DNA of 64,000 nucleotides from a virus: positions 28,322 to 92,321 of IMG/VR virus record IMGVR_UViG_3300042691_044682; one strand, 5' to 3'. The notes under the pieces are model-generated. The model made no database searches and was not told where the DNA came from. It saw only the letters and a list, made by a program, of their open reading frames with translations. Numbering within the stretch: the stretch's first letter is position 1; the number at the start of each line of letters is the position of its first letter. The translations under genes and the position numbers were made by a program. Shown here piece after piece: positions 1,749-34,352 of the stretch.

Positions 1749-2087
1749 ATGCCCCGCTTCCACGTCACCATCGAGCGCAAGCGCGCCGAGTACCTGACCG
1801 TGCGCGTCACGGCCGAGAACGAGGAGGAGGCCCGCAACCTCGCGCTCAAGCGCGACGGCGAGGGCCGCTACGACCTCCGCGACTGGGACGCCGGCGACGT
1901 GATCGAGGATTCGTCCGTGGTCACGCACGTCGAGCTCCCGAACTACGAGGAGCTCGCCGTGGAACTCGGCTTCGTCCTCGTCCAGAGCGCTGACAAGCAC
2001 GGCGACGAGGAGCACCTCTGGGAAAGCCCCAACGGGGTGGACCTCTATCGCACCGCCCGCGAGGCGGTGGAGAGCGCGAGCGCATGA
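1749..2087 (+). CDS. hypothetical protein (DpnD/PcfM-like VxVxAExEEEA motif)
   Basis: MPRFHVTIERKRAEYLTVRVTAENEEEA; ATG after element C. Confidence 0.7.
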   Translation: MPRFHVTIERKRAEYLTVRVTAENEEEARNLALKRDGEGRYDLRDWDAGDVIEDSSVVTHVELPNYEELAVELGFVLVQSADKHGDEEHLWESPNGVDLYRTAREAVESASA

Positions 2088-2317
2088 TCGGCTGGCACCC
2101 CTGCGAATGGATGCCCGCCATCGGGCGCTCCGCCAAGCGCCGCGCCATCGCCTGGTCCTGCCAGACCGATGCGCGGCTGCGGGTGCGCCACTGCGGCCAT
2201 CCGACCGCGCTCCGCCCCTACTACGTCGAGATCGACGGGACGTCGCAGCTCCACGAGCTCGGCACCTTCCGCCTTCTCGACGAGGCCCAGGCCGCCGCCA
2301 TGCGCGCGGTCGGCTGA
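2084..2317 (+). CDS. hypothetical protein
   Basis: ATGA overlap with previous gene; followed by terminator. Confidence 0.65.
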   Translation: MIGWHPCEWMPAIGRSAKRRAIAWSCQTDARLRVRHCGHPTALRPYYVEIDGTSQLHELGTFRLLDEAQAAAMRAVG

Positions 2318-2323
2318 CCGAAC

Positions 2324-2357
2324 CGCCCCGCTGGCTCCGGCCGGCGGGGCGTTTCTC
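2324..2357 (+). terminator. probable intrinsic terminator
   Basis: cgccccgctgg...ccggcggggcg followed by tttct. Confidence 0.6.
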
Positions 2358-2432
2358 GTGGCACCTTCATCGATTGCCCCGGCGCCTGACCCTCCGGGGT
2401 TCAGGAATTGTGCATCGGCCGAACCCGCCGCC

Positions 2433-2462
2433 TTGTTTATTCGTGATCCGTAACCATATAAG
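2433..2462 (+). promoter_or_regulatory. sigma70-like promoter for candidate ncRNA
   Basis: TTGTTT-N18-TATAAG in a locally AT-rich patch. Confidence 0.5.
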
Positions 2463-2469
2463 CTTCACG

Positions 2470-3100
2470 AGGGCAGCCCAGCCGGGCTGGTACCCTGCTC
2501 CCCCATTCAGCAACGTCAGTTTCGGGGGTGAGCAAAGGCCCGCCGCTTCTGCGCTGCGCCGTTTGGGCCGGCGCGCCGGCCGGGCAGTCCTCGAGGATCC
2601 ATCCTTCATTCCCGCGTCCCCTCCTCGTGAGGGGCCAGACCGCGAAGACCAGCCGCGCCGGGAGGCGCGGGGGAACGGGATCCGGCACGCTGCCCGCACG
2701 GCAGCGCTGCCGCCGAGCCTGCCGCGAGTGATGCCGCGGCGGGAGGAATCGGCCCACGCATCCGACCATTCTCCCCGCTGCTTCAGAGCCATGGGGTCTG
2801 GCCTGCTACGATATTCCCGAACGCCGCCCTTCGAGACGGCGCCCCCGAGGCAAGCTCCGCCGATCGGCGCTGACCAGCGCCACCGGGCGGAAAGCGCCGG
2901 CACGGTATGCCGGCCGGCTCGCCCGACGGGGTATTGGACCTGGAGCCCCGGCCGCAAGGCCGGCCCCCTGCTGAAGCGCATGGGGGGCAGTAGGACCAAT
3001 GGAACGCAAAGGTACCGCCGAACGACGCGCCTCCAGCGCGGCGGCCACCATGTGCAGAGAGAAACCCCCCACCGGCACGGTCCGGTGGGGGGTTTCGTCG
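2470..3100 (+). ncRNA. candidate large structured ncRNA (~630 nt), family unknown
   Basis: no credible ORF; promoter upstream, terminator downstream; many hairpins with GCAA/GGGA/UUCG loops and long-range complementarities. Confidence 0.6.
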
Positions 3101-3103
3101 TTT
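3061..3103. terminator. terminator hairpin between convergent units
   Basis: gaaaccccccaccgg-cacggt-ccggtggggggtttc perfect 15-bp stem. Confidence 0.75.
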
Positions 3104-3894
3104 CAGGGCGTCATCGCCGGCATGAGCTGCAGCTGGTCGGCGAGCAGGTCGAGCGCCTTGGGCACGCCCGCGAAGCGCGCCCGCCACTCGGCCTGGCGCC
3201 GCGGCAGGTCGGCCTGCACCCGCGCGCAGTGCGCCCGCCAGGCGCGCAGGTCGCTCTCGTGCGCCTCGGCCAGCCGCGCCAGGCGCCGCCCATACTCCTC
3301 CGCGCTCTCGTCGTGCCGCTGCGGCGGCGGCTCGCGCTCCGGCGGCGCCGGCGGCAGGCCCGGATAGGGCGCCACCTCAAGCTCGAACAGCACCAAGTCC
3401 AGCAACACGCCCAGCACCGGCCAGCTCAGCCGCCCGGCCAGGAGCGTGATGACCCGCCGTGCGCGCGTCACCCGCGGCGGCTCGAGCGCCTCATGGTTCC
3501 GGCCCGGCGCGCCGACGTCGTAGCGCCCCGACCAGCGCCGCTGCACGCCCGCCCGGGTGGCGTACTCGCGCAGGTCCGCCGCGGCCTGCAGGCGCCGGCG
3601 CAGCACGTCGCCCGTGTCGCCGAGCGCGCCACCAATCAGCAGCACCTCGATCGGACCGGGCAGCGCGGCATAGGCGGGGCCGAGGAGGGCGTAGATCTTG
3701 TCGCGGGCCAGCTGCAGGCCGCCGCGCTGGCGTTGCCGCTCCGGGGTGCCGCGATCGGCGCCCCATTTCTGCAGGATCAGGCCGGTGTCACGGTCCCGGT
3801 AGACCTCGACCTGCTCGCGCCGCCGGGTCGCCTCATGGCGAGTTCCCTTGGCCAGCCGCTTGAACCTGGACTTCCACCGCTTCGCCAACCGCAT
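3103..3894 (-). CDS. hypothetical protein, possibly late-gene regulator (DUF6456-like)
   Basis: good codon bias; C-terminal ALDLLADQL helix and position at end of replication block. Confidence 0.55.
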   Translation of the reverse strand: MRLAKRWKSRFKRLAKGTRHEATRRREQVEVYRDRDTGLILQKWGADRGTPERQRQRGGLQLARDKIYALLGPAYAALPGPIEVLLIGGALGDTGDVLRRRLQAAADLREYATRAGVQRRWSGRYDVGAPGRNHEALEPPRVTRARRVITLLAGRLSWPVLGVLLDLVLFELEVAPYPGLPPAPPEREPPPQRHDESAEEYGRRLARLAEAHESDLRAWRAHCARVQADLPRRQAEWRARFAGVPKALDLLADQLQLMPAMTP

Positions 3895-3911
3895 CGCGCC
3901 TCCGCACAGGC

Positions 3912-3930
3912 GCCACACTTCTATGTGGTC
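3912..3930. promoter_or_regulatory. CACA-N6-TGTG operator
   Basis: gccaca-cttcta-tgtggtc, intergenic. Confidence 0.6.
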
Positions 3931-3949: not shown

Positions 3950-4681
3950 CTATACGTCGTCGGCCAGCAGCACCATGAGCGCGACCCGCCCGCGGATCTG
4001 GAAACTGTCGCCATCCACGCGCCAGACCTCGCCGCGATAGGGCCACGGCAGCTCGACCCGAACGCGCTGCATCGTGCCCGAATTGCGGAACACGAGAACC
4101 GCGCGCGCCGCCTCCCCCTCGCCCTCCACCGCCACGCTGCGGACGGTGACCTCATGGCGCCCCTCGCGGATCCGGTGCACGAGCACCAGGTCGCCATCGC
4201 GCAGCGGGCGGGTCATCGAAGCGAAGGCCTGCACGCCGATGTAGCTGCCGGCAGGGTAGATGGCGTTCGCATGGCCATCGAGCAGAACCGCCGCCTCGTC
4301 GGCCGCAAGGCCGGGCGGCAGCGCCAGGTGCTGCGGCGGGGCGATGTCGGCCTCATAGGTCGGCCGCCACATGCCGTCGGCCGCCGCAACCCGGACCGGC
4401 ACGGTCGCCGCCTTCACGCCGGTCGCCGGCGTCTCGCCGATGATCTCGGTCACCGTGGCGCCGGGGATTGCGCGCGCCAGCCGCTCGAGCGTCTCCTGGC
4501 TCAGCGTCTTCGAGTGGCCGTTCATGAAGTTGTAGATGGCATTGGCCGAGCGCAGGCCGGCCGCGCGCGCCCAGTCCGCCGCACGGAGGTCGTGCCGCTG
4601 CATGAAGGCCTCGAGGGCGCCGCGGCGGCGTCGGTACAGCCGATCGCCGCCCCGAGGCCCGTCTAATGGCTGCGTCATCAT
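3950..4681 (-). CDS. CI-like XRE HTH repressor with degenerate S24-like C-terminal domain
   Basis: AADWARAAGLRSANAIYNFMNG HTH; C-terminal beta domain (DGDLVLVHR...IRGRV); divergent from Cro-like gene. Confidence 0.75.
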   Translation of the reverse strand: MMTQPLDGPRGGDRLYRRRRGALEAFMQRHDLRAADWARAAGLRSANAIYNFMNGHSKTLSQETLERLARAIPGATVTEIIGETPATGVKAATVPVRVAAADGMWRPTYEADIAPPQHLALPPGLAADEAAVLLDGHANAIYPAGSYIGVQAFASMTRPLRDGDLVLVHRIREGRHEVTVRSVAVEGEGEAARAVLVFRNSGTMQRVRVELPWPYRGEVWRVDGDSFQIRGRVALMVLLADDV

Positions 4682-4690
4682 AGGACTAGC

Positions 4691-4709
4691 ATCACAGAGT
4701 GCTGTGGTT
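4691..4709. promoter_or_regulatory. CACA-N6-TGTG operator between CI-like and Cro-like genes
   Basis: atcaca-gagtgc-tgtggtt in a 41-bp divergent gap. Confidence 0.7.
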
Positions 4710-4722
4710 CATATTCCGCCCC

Positions 4723-4977
4723 ATGAATGGCACCCGCATCGAGGCGCTGCTCGACGAGCTCGAGAAGGCAGCTCGCAAGAAGCGCCTGACGAAGAAGCAG
4801 CTCGCCGAGATGGTCGGCCTGCATCAGAACACCCTCCGGAACTTCCGTGGCTACCGCGCTCGGGAGAAGCCCGACGACTGTCGCTGGACCCCATCGGTCG
4901 AGACCATCGCCCGACTGGAGCCCGTCCTGCTGCCACGCCGGGCACGCGACTCCGCGAAACCTCAGGTTTTCACATAA
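4723..4977 (+). CDS. Cro-like HTH protein
   Basis: LTKKQLAEMVGLHQNTLRNF...WTPSVETIARLE. Confidence 0.75.
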   Translation: MNGTRIEALLDELEKAARKKRLTKKQLAEMVGLHQNTLRNFRGYRAREKPDDCRWTPSVETIARLEPVLLPRRARDSAKPQVFT

Positions 4978-5784: not shown

Positions 5785-6338
5785 CATGCCACTGCCTCGG
5801 CCAGCCGCGCCTCGATCTGCGCCACCCGCAGCCGCGCGGCCCCGGCCGCCGGCCCGCCGCTCGCCGCCAGCTTGCGGTAGTACTCGAGCAGCGCGCCGTC
5901 GCTGAGGTGGCCGGACGGTCGCGCCACCTTCGGCCCGGCCGCCTCCCGCTGGCGGGCCGGCGCGATGACCTCCTCCGCGTAGCGCGCCCGGAAGGCGGCC
6001 GCGATCGCGGCGCGCGCCTCCGGCGCCAGGGCATCGACGGGGTCGCGCGGCGGCGCCAGCAGGGGCGCGCCGCCGGCGTTCGCGATGGCGCGGCTGTGCG
6101 CCTGCGCGCGCCAGTCCTCGGCCACCAGGGCGCTGATTTCCTCGACCGAGGGCCAGAAGGCGAAGCGGCGGCAGGCCTCGCGCTGGAGCCGCTCGCTCAG
6201 CGCGGCCGTGGGGACGCTGAGCGCGAAGGCCAGCGCCCCGGCCCGGGCCTTGGCGTCGGCGGCGGTCGGCGGGTTCCGCACGGCGGCGGCGAGCGGGCGC
6301 AGGAAGCGCAGCCAGTCCTCGATGGCGGCGGGGGTCAT
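5784..6338 (-). CDS. replication-associated hypothetical protein (helicase-loader position)
   Basis: coupled to initiator by ATGA; FWPSVEEI motif. Confidence 0.6.
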   Translation of the reverse strand: MTPAAIEDWLRFLRPLAAAVRNPPTAADAKARAGALAFALSVPTAALSERLQREACRRFAFWPSVEEISALVAEDWRAQAHSRAIANAGGAPLLAPPRDPVDALAPEARAAIAAAFRARYAEEVIAPARQREAAGPKVARPSGHLSDGALLEYYRKLAASGGPAAGAARLRVAQIEARLAEAVA

Positions 6339-7465
6339 GAGATCCTCCTCGTTGCGAAGGTGACGTCTATCGGCTCGCCCGGGCCCTCGGCCTCGCGGCG
6401 CATGTCGTCCATCAGCCAGTCGAGCTTGCCCGGCCGGTCGCGGTAGACCTCGCCGCCGTGGCGGGTCGTCTCGGTCTTGTCGGGGAACAGCCCGGTCCAG
6501 CCGTTGGCGATGGATTGCTCGATGACGAGGCGCGGGTCCTGGCCCTTGGCGCGAAGGCGGTCGAGGGCCTTGAGCGACAACTCGGCCGCCCGCTGCGTCC
6601 AGCGCGCCTTGGCGACCTCGGCGCGGTAGCGCGACCAGTCGTCCCAGGCGTCGGCCGGCAGCCAGTCAGGCAGCGCTACGGCGATTTCCGGACGCGGCTT
6701 CGTGCGCCCCGCTCCCCCCCTGGGGGGGGACCCGTCCGAAGGACGGGGGGGGGATTCTTTCTTCTTCTCTACTACCTTCTCCTTCTCTATGGCATTTTCC
6801 GGCATGGCATCAGCATGGTTCGCGGAGTCCGAGGTTTTCTGCGGCTTTGCGGGAAAATGTAACGCGGCACTGGAAGTTACCGGCGGCGTTACAGGCGTTA
6901 CTGCGGGCGTTACGGTAACGCTGGTAACGGCGTTACGCGTTACACCCTCCGACGGCGTTACAGCCCCCGCCGCCGCACGACGGCGCGCCCGCAGCGCCGC
7001 CACCCGCTGGCGGGTCTTCTCGCGCCTCTCGTCCTCCTCGCTGACCCGCCCCCACCGCGCCGCCGCACCCGCATGCGCGCTCCGCCGCCGCGCCGATCGC
7101 CGCTCCCACGCATGCAGGACCGCCTCTGCCACGACCGGGTGGTACAGCCGCCCATCCGAGCATCGGACCCAATGTCGCAGCGCGACCCCCCGCACCTCCG
7201 GCCACAGCGCGCCCGCGCCCGAGAGGTGCTGCAGCACCCTGTCATCGTCCGGCAGGCTGCCCGCCGGCACCTGGTTCCACGACTTCGCCCACAGCGTCAC
7301 GCCAGCCTTGAACTCAGCCCCGTTCGCCAGCGCGTAGAAGTCGCTGTCCAGCAGGCGCATCACGTCGAGAGGCATGAAGCGCAGCCCGCGCAGGTCGGCC
7401 TCCGCCGGCACCAGGGGGTCCGGAAGGCCCTCCTCCCCATCCCGCAGGCGGACCACTCTTGCCAT
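6335..7465 (-). CDS. phage replication initiator, DUF1376/YdaU family
   Basis: FMPLDVMRLLDSD...LWAKSWNQVPAGSLPDDD...DGRLYHPVVAE; C-terminal WDDW...IEQSIANGWTGLF. Confidence 0.85.
   Translation of the reverse strand: MARVVRLRDGEEGLPDPLVPAEADLRGLRFMPLDVMRLLDSDFYALANGAEFKAGVTLWAKSWNQVPAGSLPDDDRVLQHLSGAGALWPEVRGVALRHWVRCSDGRLYHPVVAEAVLHAWERRSARRRSAHAGAAARWGRVSEEDERREKTRQRVAALRARRRAAAGAVTPSEGVTRNAVTSVTVTPAVTPVTPPVTSSAALHFPAKPQKTSDSANHADAMPENAIEKEKVVEKKKESPPRPSDGSPPRGGAGRTKPRPEIAVALPDWLPADAWDDWSRYRAEVAKARWTQRAAELSLKALDRLRAKGQDPRLVIEQSIANGWTGLFPDKTETTRHGGEVYRDRPGKLDWLMDDMRREAEGPGEPIDVTFATRRIS
6858..6962. repeat. iteron-like GCGTTAC/GTAACG repeats, probable replication origin inside initiator gene
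   Basis: about ten GTTAC/GTAAC units next to the T-rich tract 6756-6800. Confidence 0.65.
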
Positions 7466-7603
7466 ACGCCCCTCCGCACTTCCTGTGATCCTGAGCGATG
7501 CCGCAGCGCGCCCATTCGGCACGCGTGCGCATCAACCACACGGCAGGCTAATCCGCGATATGGTTCGGACGCAAGGCGAGTCTTTTCTCCTATCGTTCTG
7601 TGG

Positions 7604-11187: not shown

Positions 11188-11280
11188 GAGTCCGGCGCCC
11201 CTTCCCGGGGCGCCGGCGCTAGCGGCGTCTCCCCCCGGGCGCCGCCCTTCGATCACGGGGGATCATGGAGAACCACTACC
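11188..11280 (+). repeat. intergenic element H
   Basis: S1 gcggcgtc 11222/ggcgccgc 11238; S2 tccccc 11230/ggggga 11257; core ccttcga 11246. Confidence 0.85.
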
Positions 11281-11876: not shown

Positions 11877-11969
11877 TCGTCTGCCACCGCCGGCTTCGGC
11901 CGGCGGTGCGCAAGCGATGCCACGCCCCCGGGCATTGCCCGTCGCGAACAGGGGGCCATGGAGACCACC
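11877..11969 (+). repeat. intergenic element I (close relative of G)
   Basis: UUCG hairpin; S1 gcgatgcc 11914/ggcattgc 11931; S2 gccccc 11924/gggggc 11951; core ccgtcgc 11939. Confidence 0.9.
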
Positions 11970-12296
11970 ATGACCATCTCACTCGAATTCCAGCGCGTCG
12001 TGATGCTCAGCACCGGGCACATCACGAAGGACGACAACGAGCGCCTGCACGAAATGGCGCTCGCCGACCTTGAGGACGGCGCGCAGCCGTTCCTGGTCGC
12101 GTCCTATTATGGGGGCTTCCTCATCCGAGTGCTCGGGGAGCCCATCTTCCCCGAAACGCTTCATCAGCGCGAGAATGCCGGCCTGTCCGATGCCTTCCTT
12201 GCCCTGATGAAGTTGGCGGCCGAGCACAAGGCGGACTGGCTTCGCCTCGACACGGACGGCCTCACCTCCGATGAGTTGCCCACTTTCGAGTGGTGA
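11970..12296 (+). CDS. DUF5983-like protein
   Basis: LSTGHIT...YGGFLI...WLRLDTDG...LPTFEW. Confidence 0.7.
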   Translation: MTISLEFQRVVMLSTGHITKDDNERLHEMALADLEDGAQPFLVASYYGGFLIRVLGEPIFPETLHQRENAGLSDAFLALMKLAAEHKADWLRLDTDGLTSDELPTFEW

Positions 12297-14014: not shown

Positions 14015-14112
14015 CCGCGTGCCGCCGGCCTCCGCTCAGGGGGCCGGCGTGCAAGCCGGTCCGCGCCCCAGGGACCGGCCCTTCGAGGAAATGGGGCGAA
14101 GGAAGAGAGAGC
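14015..14112 (+). repeat. intergenic element L
   Basis: S1 gccggtcc 14055/ggaccggc 14072; S2 cgcccca 14064/tggggcg 14092; core ccttcga 14080. Confidence 0.9.
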
Positions 14113-23221: not shown

Positions 23222-23577
23222 CGGCGCTCCGCCTGCCCGACTGGCCGCTCCTGATGGACCAGCCGACGCTGCAGCGCTACCTGAGCCTGACGCGTCGCCA
23301 GCTGAAGGCCTATCTGGCCGCCGGCCTGGTTCCCCCGGCGCGCGAGCACCTGCCCGGCCAGCTGCGCTGGCACCGCGGCGAGGTGGATGCTTCGATCGCC
23401 CGCGCATGGGGGATGCGCCAGGCGGAGGAGCCAGGGGATGCGATCAGGGAAGCGAAGCAGCGCCTTGAGGGGCTCGCCGGCCCGGCCCGCCTACGTCCAG
23501 GCCGTGCAGGCGGCCAGCGGCGCGACCTACCTCTACTACCGCCGCAACGGCCGGCGAATCCCCCTTCCCGGCCCTGA
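23218..23577 (+). CDS. excisionase-like HTH protein
   Basis: WPLLMD...YLSL...VPP...RWHRGEVD immediately upstream of and overlapping integrase. Confidence 0.7.
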   Translation: MTALRLPDWPLLMDQPTLQRYLSLTRRQLKAYLAAGLVPPAREHLPGQLRWHRGEVDASIARAWGMRQAEEPGDAIREAKQRLEGLAGPARLRPGRAGGQRRDLPLLPPQRPANPPSRP

Positions 23578-24661
23578 GGGGTCGGAAGCCTTCCGGATCG
23601 CCTACCAGCAGGCTGAGAGGTTCTTCGAGGGCGCCTTCGCTCCCCCTGGCTCTGGGCGCCACACCGTCGAGGACGTCATCACCGCCTACCTCGACAGCGC
23701 CGACTATCGCCAGCTCGCGCCCAAGACCCGCGCCGACTACCGCCGTGTGCTGGACGGCTTCCGGACCCACTTCGGCGACCTCCCGGCGGCTGCGCTCACC
23801 GAGCCCTGGATCGAGGAACTGCGGGCCAGGTACGCTCCCGACCACAGCCGCGGCGATGCCGGCCACGCGATCGAGTGGAACGCGCTGCGCGCGCGCATGA
23901 TCAGCGCCATGCGCCACTACCGGCGGGTTCACCCCGAGGCCGGTCTGGCGAACCCATGGGAGGCGTCCCGCCGCCTCAAGCCGCCGGTCAGCACCGCGCA
24001 CCGGCCCTGGCCGCCGGAGGTGCTCCTGGCCGCGCTGCGCGCGGCGACGCCGGAGTTCCGCGCGCTGCTGGTCGGCTACCTCCTCACGGCGCAGCGCGGC
24101 GGCGACGTGACCCGCTTCGGGCCGGAGCAGTACGACGCCGCCAGCCGGACGCTCACGCTGAGCCAGGGCAAGACCGAGGTGCCGCTGCGGATCCATGTGC
24201 CGGCGCCACTGGCGACCGCGATCGAGGCGATGCGCGGCCGCGGCGCGACCAGGCTATTCGTCACCCCGCGCGGCCGACCATGGACGACAGCCAACGCGCA
24301 GGAGACGCTGGCGCGGCTGCTCGAGCAACTCGGCCTGGCGCGCTACACGCTGCACGGGCTCCGGGCGACAGGCCCGGTGGCGCTGAAGATGCTCGGCTTC
24401 GAGAACCGCGCCATCCGGGCGCTGACCGGGCACACCTCCGACCGCAACCTCGAGGTCTACCTGCGCGGCGTGGAGCACTACCCGCTCGCGCGCGAGGCGC
24501 AGGAAGCGCTCGCCGGCGTCTTCGGGCCAGTGATCGAGGACGCGCTCGCCGGATCCAACGAGCGCCGATTCAGCGGTGTGACCGGGCGCGCGGCCCGCGC
24601 AGGTGGCAAATCAGTGGCAAATGACAAATCTGGGCGGCGGGAGAAGGCTCTAAGTGATTGA
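23438..24661 (+). CDS. int: tyrosine integrase
   Basis: catalytic set TAQRGGD (R), QGKT (K), HGLR, LTGH, VYLR; arm-binding N-terminus YLYYRR. Confidence 0.92.
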   Translation: MRSGKRSSALRGSPARPAYVQAVQAASGATYLYYRRNGRRIPLPGPEGSEAFRIAYQQAERFFEGAFAPPGSGRHTVEDVITAYLDSADYRQLAPKTRADYRRVLDGFRTHFGDLPAAALTEPWIEELRARYAPDHSRGDAGHAIEWNALRARMISAMRHYRRVHPEAGLANPWEASRRLKPPVSTAHRPWPPEVLLAALRAATPEFRALLVGYLLTAQRGGDVTRFGPEQYDAASRTLTLSQGKTEVPLRIHVPAPLATAIEAMRGRGATRLFVTPRGRPWTTANAQETLARLLEQLGLARYTLHGLRATGPVALKMLGFENRAIRALTGHTSDRNLEVYLRGVEHYPLAREAQEALAGVFGPVIEDALAGSNERRFSGVTGRAARAGGKSVANDKSGRREKALSD

Positions 24662-24663
24662 TT
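24602..24663. promoter_or_regulatory. attP arm-type repeats and IHF site
   Basis: gtggcaaat x2 plus gacaaat (24603-24629); reverse-strand AATCAAtcacTTA at 24651-24663 matches WATCAANNNNTTR. Confidence 0.65.
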
Positions 24664-24669
24664 TTACTC

Positions 24670-24709
24670 TGGCATCCCGTACGGGATTCGAACCCGTGTT
24701 ACCAACGTG
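24670..24709 (-). other. attP core: 3' half of tRNA-Glu
   Basis: reverse complement cacgttggtaacacgggttcgaatcccgtacgggatgcca gives T-arm, acceptor 3' strand and CCA; no 5' half present. Confidence 0.85.
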
Positions 24710-24916
24710 GACACCACGATTTGCGCTAGATCAATGCCTTGAACCGGCAAATTTTCCAGGGCGCCGCCTGGTGCACCACATCGCCAGCACATCACTTCAC
24801 ATCGGCTTCATACGATCGGTAGGTTTTTTTCCTATTCTCCTGTGATACGGTGGAGCGATGACAACCACCTCGGCGGCGCTGGTCCGCCTGCCCTCCTGCA
24901 TTGCCGTCGAGACCGC

Positions 24917-30155: not shown

Positions 30156-32801
30156 TCAGATCTCCCGCACCACGATGTTCTGCCGAGGCTGGTCTTCGGC
30201 CGCAGGCACCGAAACGACGCGCTCGCGCGCAGCGATCGTGGGGGAGCGCAGCCACACTACCGTCCCCGGCACCGGATAAGTCCCGGCCCGGATATTTTTC
30301 ACGAGGAATTCACGCGCGAGCACCCGCGCGAAGCGCAGGTTGAAGATGACCTCGAGGCCCGCCTCGCCGGCCAGCAGGGCCTCGGCGAAGGCGGTCCGGT
30401 AGGCCTCGGCGAGCAGATCACCCTGGCCCAGCAGCAGCGCCTCGGCGCCGAGCAGGATGCGCGGCTCCGGCGCGACCAGGCCGCCCTGGCCGGCCAGTGC
30501 CGCAAGGGCGGCCAGATCCAGCCGGGCCAGCCCCGAGAGCCCGCCCTGCCCCGCCAGCGCCGCCGCGGCGAGCCGCTGCGCCTGGGGCGTCGCCGCAAGA
30601 GTGCCAGCGCCGGTGAGGGAGGCCAGCGCGCGCGCCCAGAGGCCCGCCTCAGCAGCCAGGGTGCCAGCGCCGGACAGCGCCACCGCGATCGAGGCGCCGC
30701 CCGTCGTGCTGGCGGCGAGGTTGCCTATACCGGAGAGGGCCGCCGCGATAGACAAACGAGCTTGTGGCTCGGCCGTGAGAGACAACGCCCCGGCCAGCGC
30801 CGCCTCGGCCAGCGCGATCCGCCGCGCGTCGGTGGCGAGGGTGCCGGCGCCGGCAAGCGCCTGGGTGGCGAACGAGGTCCGGCGAGCGTCTGCCGCGGCG
30901 GTGCCGGCGCCGGAGAAGGCGACGGCCAGGCGCAGGAGCGCGCGGGCGTCGGCTGCGAGCGTCCCGGTGCCGGTGAGGCTCGCGGTGCCGAGCTGCGTGC
31001 CTTCGGCGACGATGTAGAGGCTGCCGGCGCCCGAGAGGGAGGCGGCGAGCCGCAGCAGCGCCTTGGCGTCGGCCGAGACCGCGCCTGCGCCGCTCAGCAG
31101 CTCCGCGACGAGCGCGATGCGGCGGCTGTCGGCGGTGGCGGTGCCGCTGCCGGCCAGCGTGGCGGCGGCGCGTACCAGGGCGACCGGGTCGGCGTAGAGC
31201 CCACCGGCGCCCGCCAGGGCAGCCAGCGCGGCGGCCCGCATCCCCGCATCGACGGCGAGGGTGCCCTGCCCCGACAGGGCGGCCGAGGCGAACTGGGTGC
31301 CTTCGGCGGTGACAGAGATGGAGCCCGCGCCGGCCAGGCTGGCGGCGAGGCGCAGATGGGCCCGGGCATCGGCCGAGAGGCCGGCGACGGCGGCCAGGGC
31401 TGCGGCGTCGCGCAGCAGAACGCCGGCGTCGGCGGCGAGCGTCCCGACCCCCGAGAGGCTCGCGGCGGCGAAGGCGGCCCTGGTGCCGTCCACCGACACC
31501 GCGCCGGAGCCGGACAGCGCGGCGGTGACCCGGATCTGTGCGGCGGGATCCGCGGCGACCGCGCCGACACCCGTGAGGGCGGCCGAGGCGCTGACGGTCG
31601 AGCCCCCGATGTCCGGCAGGATGAGGGCGGCGAAGGCGAGGCGGACCCGGCTGCCGGCGCCGCTCTGCACCGTGGCGTCGGCGGCCAGGCTGCCGGCGCC
31701 TGCGAGCGCGGCCGTGAAGCGGATCGTGGCGGCGGCATCGGTGGCGAGGGCGCCGGCGCCGGCGAGCGCCGCCGCGGCGAGAGCCTGGTTCTGCCCGGTG
31801 GCGGCCAGGGTGCCCGCCCCGGTCAGGGCGGCGGTCCCGGTAGTGATGACCCCGGCGCTCGCGACAAGGGTGCCGGCGCCCGTCAGCGCAGCGGCGGCGA
31901 GAAGCTGGTTCTGGCCCGCGCCGACGAGGCTACCCGCCCCCGTGAGCGCCGCGGTGCCGGACTGAATGCGGCGCGCCTCGCCCGCCAGCAAACCGGCGCC
32001 GGTGAGGGATGCCTCCCCCTGGTAGGTCGTACCGCCGCCCTGGACGGTGGCGTCGGCGGCCAGGCTGCCGGCGCCCGAGAGCGCCACCGCCAGGCTCAGG
32101 GACGCCTTGGCGTCGGAGGACGCGGTGCCGGCGCCGGTGAGCGAAGCCGTCGCCTGCAGCGGGATCGGCGGGCTGATCGCCAGCGTCCACGACACCCACT
32201 GCTCGGAGGCGCTGGTGAAGGTGCCGGGGTCGAGCGACGAGGCGTTGGCCTGGTACTCGGCCGTGTTGGTCGAGGCGCCGCCCGTGCCCGCCGCCGCCTG
32301 GGTCTGGAGGTCGGTGAAGGTGCCCGGCGTGGTCGGCGCGACGGTGGCGACCGTCGTGCTGTCGCCCGAGCGGGTGACGATCCAGAGGTAGTCCTGCGCG
32401 CCGCTCGGGCCCGTGTGCTGAGGCGGGTTCGAGTTGGTCGACGAGTTGTTCGCGCTCGTGCCGGTGACCGGGTTGGTGCTGGCGTGCCCGGTGATGCGAA
32501 GCGAGGTGTGCGACGACTGCTCGGAGGCGCTGGTCGTCAGCGTGAGGGCGTCGGAGCCCTCAGCGATCTTCCAGATGATCGCGCCCGTGACGATGGTGCC
32601 GTTCGAGGCTTGCCCGAGGATGCTCCAGTTGTCGCCCGAGACGCCCGTGTTGATTGAGACGGTCGGGTTGCCGTCCACCGAGAAGACCACCACCAGCAGG
32701 TCGCCGGCCGAGATGCTGGCGGGCAGCGTGATGGCGTGCGACGTGGTGTTCGTTGCGGTGGTGCGGTTGTTCGCCCGGGTCTGGACGCTCGGAAAGGCCA
32801 T
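30156..32801 (-). CDS. fibre-like protein: N-terminal beta domain + long AxLxGxGxLxA repeat
   Basis: ~19-21 aa Ala/Gly repeats over about 600 aa. Confidence 0.8.
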   Translation of the reverse strand: MAFPSVQTRANNRTTATNTTSHAITLPASISAGDLLVVVFSVDGNPTVSINTGVSGDNWSILGQASNGTIVTGAIIWKIAEGSDALTLTTSASEQSSHTSLRITGHASTNPVTGTSANNSSTNSNPPQHTGPSGAQDYLWIVTRSGDSTTVATVAPTTPGTFTDLQTQAAAGTGGASTNTAEYQANASSLDPGTFTSASEQWVSWTLAISPPIPLQATASLTGAGTASSDAKASLSLAVALSGAGSLAADATVQGGGTTYQGEASLTGAGLLAGEARRIQSGTAALTGAGSLVGAGQNQLLAAAALTGAGTLVASAGVITTGTAALTGAGTLAATGQNQALAAAALAGAGALATDAAATIRFTAALAGAGSLAADATVQSGAGSRVRLAFAALILPDIGGSTVSASAALTGVGAVAADPAAQIRVTAALSGSGAVSVDGTRAAFAAASLSGVGTLAADAGVLLRDAAALAAVAGLSADARAHLRLAASLAGAGSISVTAEGTQFASAALSGQGTLAVDAGMRAAALAALAGAGGLYADPVALVRAAATLAGSGTATADSRRIALVAELLSGAGAVSADAKALLRLAASLSGAGSLYIVAEGTQLGTASLTGTGTLAADARALLRLAVAFSGAGTAAADARRTSFATQALAGAGTLATDARRIALAEAALAGALSLTAEPQARLSIAAALSGIGNLAASTTGGASIAVALSGAGTLAAEAGLWARALASLTGAGTLAATPQAQRLAAAALAGQGGLSGLARLDLAALAALAGQGGLVAPEPRILLGAEALLLGQGDLLAEAYRTAFAEALLAGEAGLEVIFNLRFARVLAREFLVKNIRAGTYPVPGTVVWLRSPTIAARERVVSVPAAEDQPRQNIVVREI

Positions 32802-32804
32802 GGC

Positions 32805-34352
32805 TTACGGCACCGGCACAAAGCGAAGCCTGAGGTCGGTGTAGTCCGTGATCGCGGCGCGCTCGCCCGCGCTGATCTCCTGCGTGTAGAGGGTCTCGGT
32901 GTCCGCCAGCGCCGGGTGCGACCACTCGGCGATGACGGTGGTGCCCTGCCGCAGCTGCACCGTCGCGCCAATCGTGCTGCCGTCGCGCCGCAGGGCGTAG
33001 TGCGCCTTGATCACCCCCGCCCCCGGCGCGCCGGGCAGCCCCAGTAGCATCTCGAAGGGATCCGACCCGCCGGGCGCCGACTGCGCATAGTCGGCCCAAT
33101 CGGGCGGCGGGGTCTCATCGACGCGGGACCACAGGTCCGTCGTGCCCCCGAGCTGATCCGTCCAGCCGGTCGAGGCGGTGTCGGAGGTGGGGAACATCCA
33201 CGTCTCCTTCACGTTCGCGCTGTCGACCGTCCCGACGCCGGCGAGCGCGGCGCGCGCGGCGGCGATGAGCCCCGCTTCGGTCAGCGCCGTCCCCTGCCCC
33301 GCCAGCGCGGCCAGGGCATTCGCTACCATCCCCCCTTCGGCGGCGACCGCGCCAGCGCCGGACATCGCGATGGCGGCGAGCGCCGTGCGCTGCGCGGCCG
33401 CGGCGGCGGTGCCCGCGCCGGCCAGGGCCGTGGCGAGGCGGATCTCCGCGCGCGGCTCGATGATAGCGGCGCCTGCCCCGGCGAGGGCGGCATTGGCCAG
33501 GCTGGTGCGGGTTGCCGCGGCGGCCGCGCTGCCCGCGCCCGTCAGCGAGACATTCTGTCGGACCTCGGCGCGCGGCTCGGCCGCCAGGGTGCCGGCGCCC
33601 GCCAGTGCGGCGGCGGCGAACTGTGTCGAGATGCTCGAGACGGCCAGCGCGCCTTCACCGGCCAGGGCGACACTCGCCTGCAGCAGGGCGGACGGTTCCG
33701 CCGCCAGGGCGCCCGCGCCGGCCAGGGCAGCGCTGTCGCGCAGCACAACCCCGGCCTGGGCCGCGAGGGTACCGGCACCCGTCAGCGCCGCCGTGGCGGT
33801 GTAGGTCGCCGCGGTCGAGGCCTCGGCGGCAAGGGTGCCGACGCCCGAAAACGCGGCGGTGGCGAGCAGATGGTTCTGCGCAGCCGCCGCCTGGGTGCCG
33901 ACCCCGGCCAGGGCAACGGTCGGACGAACATCAGCCCTCGGCTCGACCGTCAGAGTGCCTGCGCCGGAGAGCGCCGCCGCGGTGAGCAGCTGGTTCTGCC
34001 CGGCCGCAGCGAGCGAGCCCGCGCCGGCCAGGGCGATGTCGCCCGAGACGGACCGGCTGGCCGCGGCGGCTACGGTGCCGACGCCGACGAAGGCGACGGC
34101 GATGGACAGCGCGGCGCGCGGCTCGGCGGCGACCGTGCCGGCGCCCGTAAGGGCCGCCTCGGCGAACTGGACGCGCCTGGCGTCGGCGGCGAGCGCGCCC
34201 GCGCCGGAGAGAACCGCCGGGAGGCTAAGCTGCGCGGACGAACCGGCCGTCGCGACGCCAGCGCCGGTGAGCGACGCGGTGCCTTGGTAAGTCGTGCCGC
34301 CCGTCGCGTGTAGTTCGGCGCCACCTGGGACGAGAACGCCGAACGGCATCAT
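32805..34352 (-). CDS. fibre-like protein: AxLxGxGxLxA repeats + C-terminal domain
   Basis: same repeat as neighbour. Confidence 0.8.
   Translation of the reverse strand: MMPFGVLVPGGAELHATGGTTYQGTASLTGAGVATAGSSAQLSLPAVLSGAGALAADARRVQFAEAALTGAGTVAAEPRAALSIAVAFVGVGTVAAAASRSVSGDIALAGAGSLAAAGQNQLLTAAALSGAGTLTVEPRADVRPTVALAGVGTQAAAAQNHLLATAAFSGVGTLAAEASTAATYTATAALTGAGTLAAQAGVVLRDSAALAGAGALAAEPSALLQASVALAGEGALAVSSISTQFAAAALAGAGTLAAEPRAEVRQNVSLTGAGSAAAAATRTSLANAALAGAGAAIIEPRAEIRLATALAGAGTAAAAAQRTALAAIAMSGAGAVAAEGGMVANALAALAGQGTALTEAGLIAAARAALAGVGTVDSANVKETWMFPTSDTASTGWTDQLGGTTDLWSRVDETPPPDWADYAQSAPGGSDPFEMLLGLPGAPGAGVIKAHYALRRDGSTIGATVQLRQGTTVIAEWSHPALADTETLYTQEISAGERAAITDYTDLRLRFVPVP

Follow-up and report, generated by a model that had tools for sequence, protein, structure and literature searches.

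Non-coding DNA between converging operons of a high-GC temperate phage: a plausible lineage-specific transcription unit, with no support for a large structured RNA

What does a tightly packed temperate phage keep in nearly 800 bp of DNA between two converging genes? The window analysed here is a stretch of 64,000 nucleotides (28322-92321) from an IMG/VR virus record of 92 kb, and the phage is temperate with about 70% GC. In it a plus-strand gene (2084-2317) and a minus-strand gene (3103-3918) point at each other across a gap. A first-pass annotation, made from the sequence alone, put this gap at about 780 bp, and it measures 785 bp (2318-3102). The annotation read the gap as one large ornate RNA of about 630 nt with its own promoter and terminator, possibly a sponge for a factor that binds a repeated element of the phage. 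The feature is real and its boundaries are as first described, but a large structured RNA is not supported. We argue that a lineage-specific non-coding transcription unit is plausible instead. The argument needs the following features.

2084 to 2317, plus strand: last gene of the rightward early operon, 77 aa (GC3 0.95, GC2 0.56; phase consistent to 2317).
2324 to 2351, plus strand: early-operon intrinsic terminator, one-way (12-bp stem with 11 GC pairs, tail TTTCTCGTGG).
2430 to 2468, plus strand: AT-rich promoter-like island (TTGTTT at 2433-2438, N18, TATAAG at 2457-2462).
2469 to 3060, plus strand: GC-rich (about 0.72) untranslated body with ten short independent hairpins, recognised by periodicity loss and hairpin excess.
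2819 to 2838, plus strand: partial copy of the core of a repeated intergenic element (GAACGCCGC..CCTTCGAGACG).
3061 to 3096, both strands: two-way intrinsic terminator (perfect 15-bp arms at 3061-3075 and 3082-3096, 6-nt loop).
3103 to 3918, minus strand: 271-aa gene, second of the immunity operon (GC3 0.94).
3950 to 4681, minus strand: cI-like HTH repressor gene, 243 aa (weak HTH_26 match; phrog_4, 'transcriptional repressor').

The stretch 2318-3102 is a non-coding junction between two converging units. GC differs among codon positions by 0.35-0.6 in the flanking genes, and this spread falls to 0.06-0.2 in about 2320-3050. No 150-nt window of the gap has any residual periodicity, and despite this collapse the gap keeps a GC of about 0.72 overall. 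Three ORFs in the gap belong to no Pfam or PHROGs family. The gene caller does place a minus-strand ORF here (about 204-210 aa), but a word-indexed protein search with it matched on identical DNA only. The stop-free plus-strand frame had zero matches in a full HMMER search against 1.84 billion representative proteins. The non-coding status claimed at first pass therefore holds both by periodicity and by the absence of protein relatives for the frames searched. Larger apparent gaps from a cruder gene call were rejected. The largest of them (30.7-34.3 kb) is one long gene in a single frame, which makes 2318-3102 the clearest gene-free stretch of the window. In that region (30750-34350) the codon phase never changes, and each codon position has a GC of 0.74-0.79. 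Its probable content is a gene of more than 1000 aa, Gly/Ala/Pro-rich and tail fibre-like, which simple GC3/GC2 rules miss.

Other kinds of content were also sought. A tRNA/tmRNA scan found none. The gap has no tandem repeats or iterons and no overall enrichment of palindromic hexamers, and compared with the rest of the phage it gives only GC-rich matches of 23-24 nt, which have no weight. The 77-aa gene to its left matches no Pfam or PHROG family.

The phage has an integrase gene (23387-24661), RecT and exonuclease genes, and a lambda-O-like replication protein gene (6335-7522, minus strand). The capsid proteins nearest to its own, at 48%, are those of Brevundimonas phages, and its host is probably an alphaproteobacterium. 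The DNA occurs in fungus-associated and freshwater metagenomes in public sequencing runs, and no RNA run is among the listed runs that hold the phage. Four low-share runs gave only short contigs identical to the window and unrelated GC-rich fragments, with zero variants. Close relatives were sought through the 271-aa, capsid and replication proteins and by alignments in viral, metagenome and genome collections, and these searches returned none. No viral contig has an exact 27-mer from the gap, and DNA and protein searches of phage and plasmid collections gave no match.

The boundaries come next. The terminator that the first-pass annotation called at 2324 passes a terminator scan as 2324-2351. 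It works in one direction, since the U tract is on the plus strand only and the minus-strand tail, GGTTCGGTC, has no T run. The perfect 15-bp stem claimed for the other end is present as the inverted repeat 3061-3096. Its tails, TTTCGTCGTTT on the plus strand and TTTCTCTCT on the minus strand, are both T-rich, so the structure can serve as the end of a rightward RNA as well as of the immunity operon. It should be added that the T run is interrupted and fails the scan's 5-of-8 rule.

The AT-rich island begins about 80 nt past the one-way terminator. It is one of only 14 such islands in the 92-kb record when an island is defined by a GC of at most 40% per 30 nt. The remaining islands sit where control sites are to be expected: in the cI/early-operon switch regions, within the O-like gene, and beside the integrase gene. 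The promoter proposed earlier, TTGTTT-N18-TATAAG, is in the island at 2433-2462 as described, but a strict scan for hexamers close to TTGACA/TATAAT, spaced by 16-18 nt, finds no promoter; TATAAG has no final T, and the spacer is N18. The host may have a different consensus, and we infer promoter activity from the island and its place. An inverted repeat, TCGTGA-N18-TCACGA (2441-2470), brackets the candidate -10. It occurs exactly twice in the window, at 2441-2470 and 11998-12027, where 0.01 occurrences are expected, and it may be a putative site for some regulator. The second copy sits 40 nt inside the gene 11958-12296.

Two other AT-rich places in the window can be named here. One is an AT-rich and pyrimidine-rich island at 6751-6799, inside the lambda-O-like gene. 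The replication origin of lambda is within its O gene, and by this analogy 6751-6799 is likely the candidate ori. The other consists of three AT-rich islands at 24639-24854, directly past the integrase gene, and is likely the putative attP region.

Do the hairpins of the body add up to a fold? All of the local hairpins listed in the first-pass annotation are present, and short hairpins are in excess. There are 10 perfect hairpins of at least 6 bp in 2463-3055 (stems of 6-7 bp and loops of 3-8 nt, counted within 593 nt), where shuffles give 2.3±1.5. Control segments from the same genome (35, equal-sized) have 2.4±1.9, with a maximum of 7. The ten are not copies of each other and have no repeated loop motif. 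Two of them have GNRA loops, GGGA at 2660 and GCAA at 2954, and GNRA loops are found on the plus strand only. The excess is also seen elsewhere: a 513-nt intergenic stretch directly left of the window has 6 hairpins where 1.5 are expected.

The folding energy says something different. With its terminator the whole stretch folds at a z of about -3 on both strands, but this is because of 3061-3096. The body without the terminator has a z of -1.6 against shuffles, again on both strands. Folding no better than shuffles had been set beforehand as the outcome that speaks against the ornate RNA, and this is what the body does, since without the terminator it does not outdo composition-matched shuffles. 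Local 120-nt windows in the gap have z values between +1.2 and -1.5 and do not surpass the coding flanks, and the hairpin energies have no strand preference (-170.1 vs -169.6 kcal/mol). The nested multi-stem domain drawn earlier does come back as a three-way domain (2581-2696) in the MFE fold of 2578-2699, but its z is -0.84 and its fold is equalled by 39 of 200 shuffles. Long-range complementary 9-mers are at the level of chance (3 observed, 3.4±2.5 expected from shuffles). Hence neither the proposed 9-bp "pseudoknot" pair nor the GGTACC helix said to close the ends carries any weight. The other proposed long-range pair, attggacct/aggaccaat, has a central mismatch as well.

Known RNA families are equally silent. 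Rfam 15 covariance models at gathering thresholds have no match anywhere in the window. With the limit relaxed to E<=10, the gap matches terminator look-alikes alone (NsiR1 with 22 bits against a cut-off of 39, ctRNA_pGA1 with 18 against 45), and the analogous slots of related phages give nothing beyond such look-alikes. The earlier remark that the gap is not recognisably ROOL, GOLLD or OLE was thus correct.

One RNA-level signal does differ between the strands. Across five slots (the window and those of the related phages L004-L007 described below), 5 of the 18 tetraloop hairpins in the window's plus orientation have a stable GNRA/UNCG loop and none in the opposite orientation does. The background is 4.4% and P is about 9e-4, for a count of five loops, two of which are in terminators. 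This is the only strand-specific hint at the RNA level, and it points rightward.

The sponge idea depends on the repeated intergenic element of the phage. Its defining parts are a long hairpin, S1 and S2 segments that pair around a CC[G/T]TCG core, and a Shine-Dalgarno sequence followed by a start codon. A resemblance to the core of "element B" had been noted at about 2826, and the core does match: GCCCTTCGAG at 2826 is identical to the core of the element at 14078. The gap copy also agrees without a mismatch over 13 nt with the element 11188-11280, and it has matches of 9 and 11 nt to the element 776-858. The full architecture is absent, however. Within 2819-2838 only the core and 9 nt upstream of it match, about 16 nt of the element 776-858 are missing, and there is no Shine-Dalgarno sequence or start codon behind the copy. 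One partial copy is a trace and not an array, so a sponge is not supported. The gap has no repeated motif either, and its counts of GGA/ANGGA and CTCCC are at shuffle level. As a separate observation, intergenic elements with the hairpin, a CC[G/T]TCGA core and the Shine-Dalgarno sequence are visible at 776-858, 1651-1748, 11188-11280 and 14015-14112, and GCCCTTCGAG with at most one mismatch occurs 26 times where 10.6 are expected.

Since the sequence of the gap has no match, it is worth looking at the same position in related phages. The repressor has relatives in four IMG/VR phages of 103-111 kb, L004-L007, at 32-48% identity (48% in L004, 37% in L007). These phages are syntenic around the repressor gene and an endonuclease-like gene. 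The synteny extends to a weak homologue of the second immunity-operon gene in L007 and to one far-side gene in L004. All four have a gene-poor stretch at the same convergent junction, of 431 nt in L004, 646 nt in L007, about 1.1 kb in L005 and about 1.3 kb in L006. The gap has no detectable similarity to any of these slots by blastn, nhmmer, a whole-record search or Smith-Waterman alignment against shuffles, and in practice the slots have none to each other. An ornate RNA, if conserved, should outlast a protein that is 32-48% identical. The unconserved sequence of the slot therefore argues against this class of RNA.

What recurs is the layout. In the orientation of the window, L004 and L007 have a far-operon terminator, an AT island, a non-coding body and a strong terminator beside the immunity operon. 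Their bodies are 320-380 nt long and enriched in hairpins, and their islands have promoter-like hexamers (TTGCAT-N17-TATATT in L004, TTGTAA-N16-TATCTA in L007). This recurrence makes a separate non-coding transcription unit on the plus strand plausible. A local hairpin excess is found in the gaps of L004, L005 and L007. A CCGAAC+hairpin motif that seemed common to the window, L004 and L007 was rejected, as it occurs at chance frequency. L005 and L006 have no AT island inside the gap. Their slots have small genes in the orientation of the candidate RNA:

L005, 9016 to 9312, minus strand of that record: small gene, about 98 aa, no family.
L006, 9538 to 9729, minus strand of that record: possible small gene, 63 aa, no family.

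This implies that the slot behaves as a site where autonomous accessory cassettes come and go.

The other side of the junction is the immunity operon. The place behind a phage repressor gene is the usual seat of exclusion or defence genes. For the 271-aa protein encoded there, a search of 5.8 billion proteins gives just three relatives, at 82-89% identity, and Pfam, PHROG and PADLOC give no match. An ORF for an 84-aa HTH (Cro-like) protein (4723-4977, plus strand) is divergent from the repressor gene, and the divergent region 4682-4722 contains the palindrome CACAGAGTGCTGTG at 4693-4706. Going by this arrangement, 3950-4977 looks like a cI/cro-type switch. A similar sequence, CACAGttttCTGT, is found some 9.5 kb to the left of the window, within an AT island where the long rightward operon starts, which suggests a putative second operator.

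We argue that the stretch is best explained as a small autonomous, 'moron-like', lineage-specific transcription unit without an ORF. We hold this tentatively and would give it somewhat less than an even chance. In this scenario transcription from a promoter in the AT-rich island (2433-2462) would begin near 2469 and yield about 0.6 kb of RNA, built as a string of short independent GC hairpins and not as a single global fold. The transcript would end at the two-way terminator 3061-3096, which would also end the cI-like immunity operon. With this terminator in common, the 3' ends of both RNAs would overlap and be complementary over it. The local role would be to occupy and insulate the convergent junction, stopping read-through both ways. 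The unit might also modulate the immunity mRNA, via the 3' overlap or via occasional read-through antisense to cI, and read-through past cI would continue sense into the cro-like gene. Such a function would be sequence-tolerant, and the RNA would be fast-evolving and lineage-specific.

Several observations count for this transcription unit. The loss of periodicity is confined to 2320-3050, where protein relatives are absent. A terminator is followed by a rare AT island, the far terminator has T-rich tails both ways, and the tetraloop bias is on the plus strand. The layout is that of L004 and L007, and the hairpin excess is found in the window and in the L004, L005 and L007 gaps. Other observations count against it: the promoter fails the scan, the hairpin energies are strand-neutral, folding is at shuffle level, the analogous slots are dissimilar in sequence, and L005 and L006 have small genes and no island. 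A long untranslated RNA would be a Rho target, which also counts against it. One can go further and claim that a group of high-GC temperate phages of about 100 kb has a non-coding RNA gene facing the 3' end of the immunity operon, with a conserved position and an unconstrained sequence. Its convergent transcription, or the 3' overlap with the cI-operon mRNA, would tune the maintenance of lysogeny or the lytic switch. We consider this extended claim distinctly unlikely.

The rival that survives best is that the gap is a passive spacer. It would be untranscribed or incidentally transcribed DNA at a mosaic junction, its terminators would belong to the flanking operons, and the island would be no working promoter. 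This is unlikely in our view, but it is a serious competitor. It accounts for a sequence that is unconserved across related phages though the neighbouring repressor is conserved, and for a gap length of about 160 to 1100 nt among relatives. Folding at shuffle level and a promoter that fails the scan fit it too, as does the hairpin excess in other intergenic DNA of the phage such as the 513-nt stretch. However, the gap has a GC as high as the genome average, and the usual AT-biased mutation would be expected to lower the GC of neutral DNA. AT islands are rare, and the one in the gap directly follows a terminator, an arrangement also found in L004 and L007. A spacer also leaves both the plus-strand tail of the second terminator and the plus-strand bias in stable tetraloops unexplained.

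Another scenario is the relic of an accessory (moron) gene, in which a promoter-gene-terminator cassette like those in L005 and L006 was once present and its ORF has decayed. The cassette-like boundaries fit, the genes of about 98 aa and possibly 63 aa lie in the same slot and orientation, and the element copied in part at 2819-2838 normally precedes a gene. Against this, codon periodicity is absent in every 150-nt window, the two frames searched have no protein similarity, tblastx gives no collinear match to the L005 or L006 slots, and the GC is undecayed. We regard a relic as improbable.

The chances are slim that the stretch acts as DNA, with the island, the inverted repeat and the hairpin-rich sequence forming a protein-binding or recombination site such as a distal operator or a hot spot of module exchange. 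The one further exact copy of TCGTGA-N18-TCACGA in the window (at 11998, 0.01 expected) is in its favour, and a slot that varies among relatives is expected of a recombination hot spot. However, the gap has no copy of the cI/cro palindrome CACAGNNNNCTGTG and no iterons or tandem repeats, and the likely origin (6751-6799) and attP (beside the integrase gene) are elsewhere. Finally, a large, globally folded RNA of about 630 nt like ROOL, GOLLD or OLE, possibly a sponge for a repeat-binding factor, is very improbable: the size, the non-coding nature, the boundaries, the many hairpins (two with GNRA loops) and the three-way domain of the MFE fold of 2578-2699 all fit it, but the body folds at z -1.6 overall and -0.84 in the domain with local windows at or above shuffle level, the long-range helices are at chance, Rfam at E<10 gives terminator look-alikes alone, and conserved sequence in related phages and a repeated binding motif are both absent.

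Should the ORF-less unit be transcribed, a little-studied group of high-GC temperate phages gains an orphan RNA, and with it a case of a regulatory slot that is maintained through its position and not through its sequence. As things stand, the main value of the case is negative. To the eye, DNA that is GC-rich, free of ORFs and studded with hairpins can pass for a large ornate RNA even when its folding energy and long-range pairings do not go beyond what its composition yields. A simple control set for such calls in high-GC genomes is to count local hairpins, to count complementary k-mers at long range, and to fold the sequence with its terminator taken off.

How does the stretch compare with known systems? 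ROOL (RF03087), GOLLD (RF01998) and OLE (RF01071) are large ornate non-coding RNAs of 500-800 nt, and ROOL and GOLLD occur in a phage or prophage context (PMC5737381; bioRxiv 10.1101/2024.12.08.627333). The gap is non-coding and of the same size class, and it shares the phage context of ROOL and GOLLD. Unlike them it matches no covariance model, its sequence is unconserved and its long-range helices are unsupported. The host group, probably alphaproteobacterial, is a different one, and so is the composition, which is high-GC.

Convergent genes joined by two-way intrinsic terminators, with overlapping 3' ends, are a general bacterial arrangement. The stretch is like such junctions in having a single hairpin with T-rich tails on both strands between converging units, and in being GC-rich, ORF-free and downstream of a repressor gene. 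It is unlike a plain junction in that both operons terminate right after their stop codons, with 700 nt and a promoter-like island between them. The 6S RNA/tR' leader of lambda PR' and the HK022 put RNAs are short terminated leader transcripts that become read-through substrates. The leader would be far longer here, and neither an antiterminator gene nor an element like nut, qut or put was recognised. The likeness, which is pure analogy, is in the order of parts: a candidate promoter, an untranslated RNA and a strong terminator, where read-through would be regulatory.

Morons, as reportedly described by Hendrix and colleagues, are autonomous promoter-gene-terminator cassettes between temperate-phage genes, often beside the immunity region. 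The stretch is unlike them in that it has no cargo ORF or sign of a former one, and its expression is predicted only. Like a moron, however, it has its own promoter-like island and terminator and adjoins the repressor operon, and the content of its slot differs between relatives, with small genes in L005 and L006.
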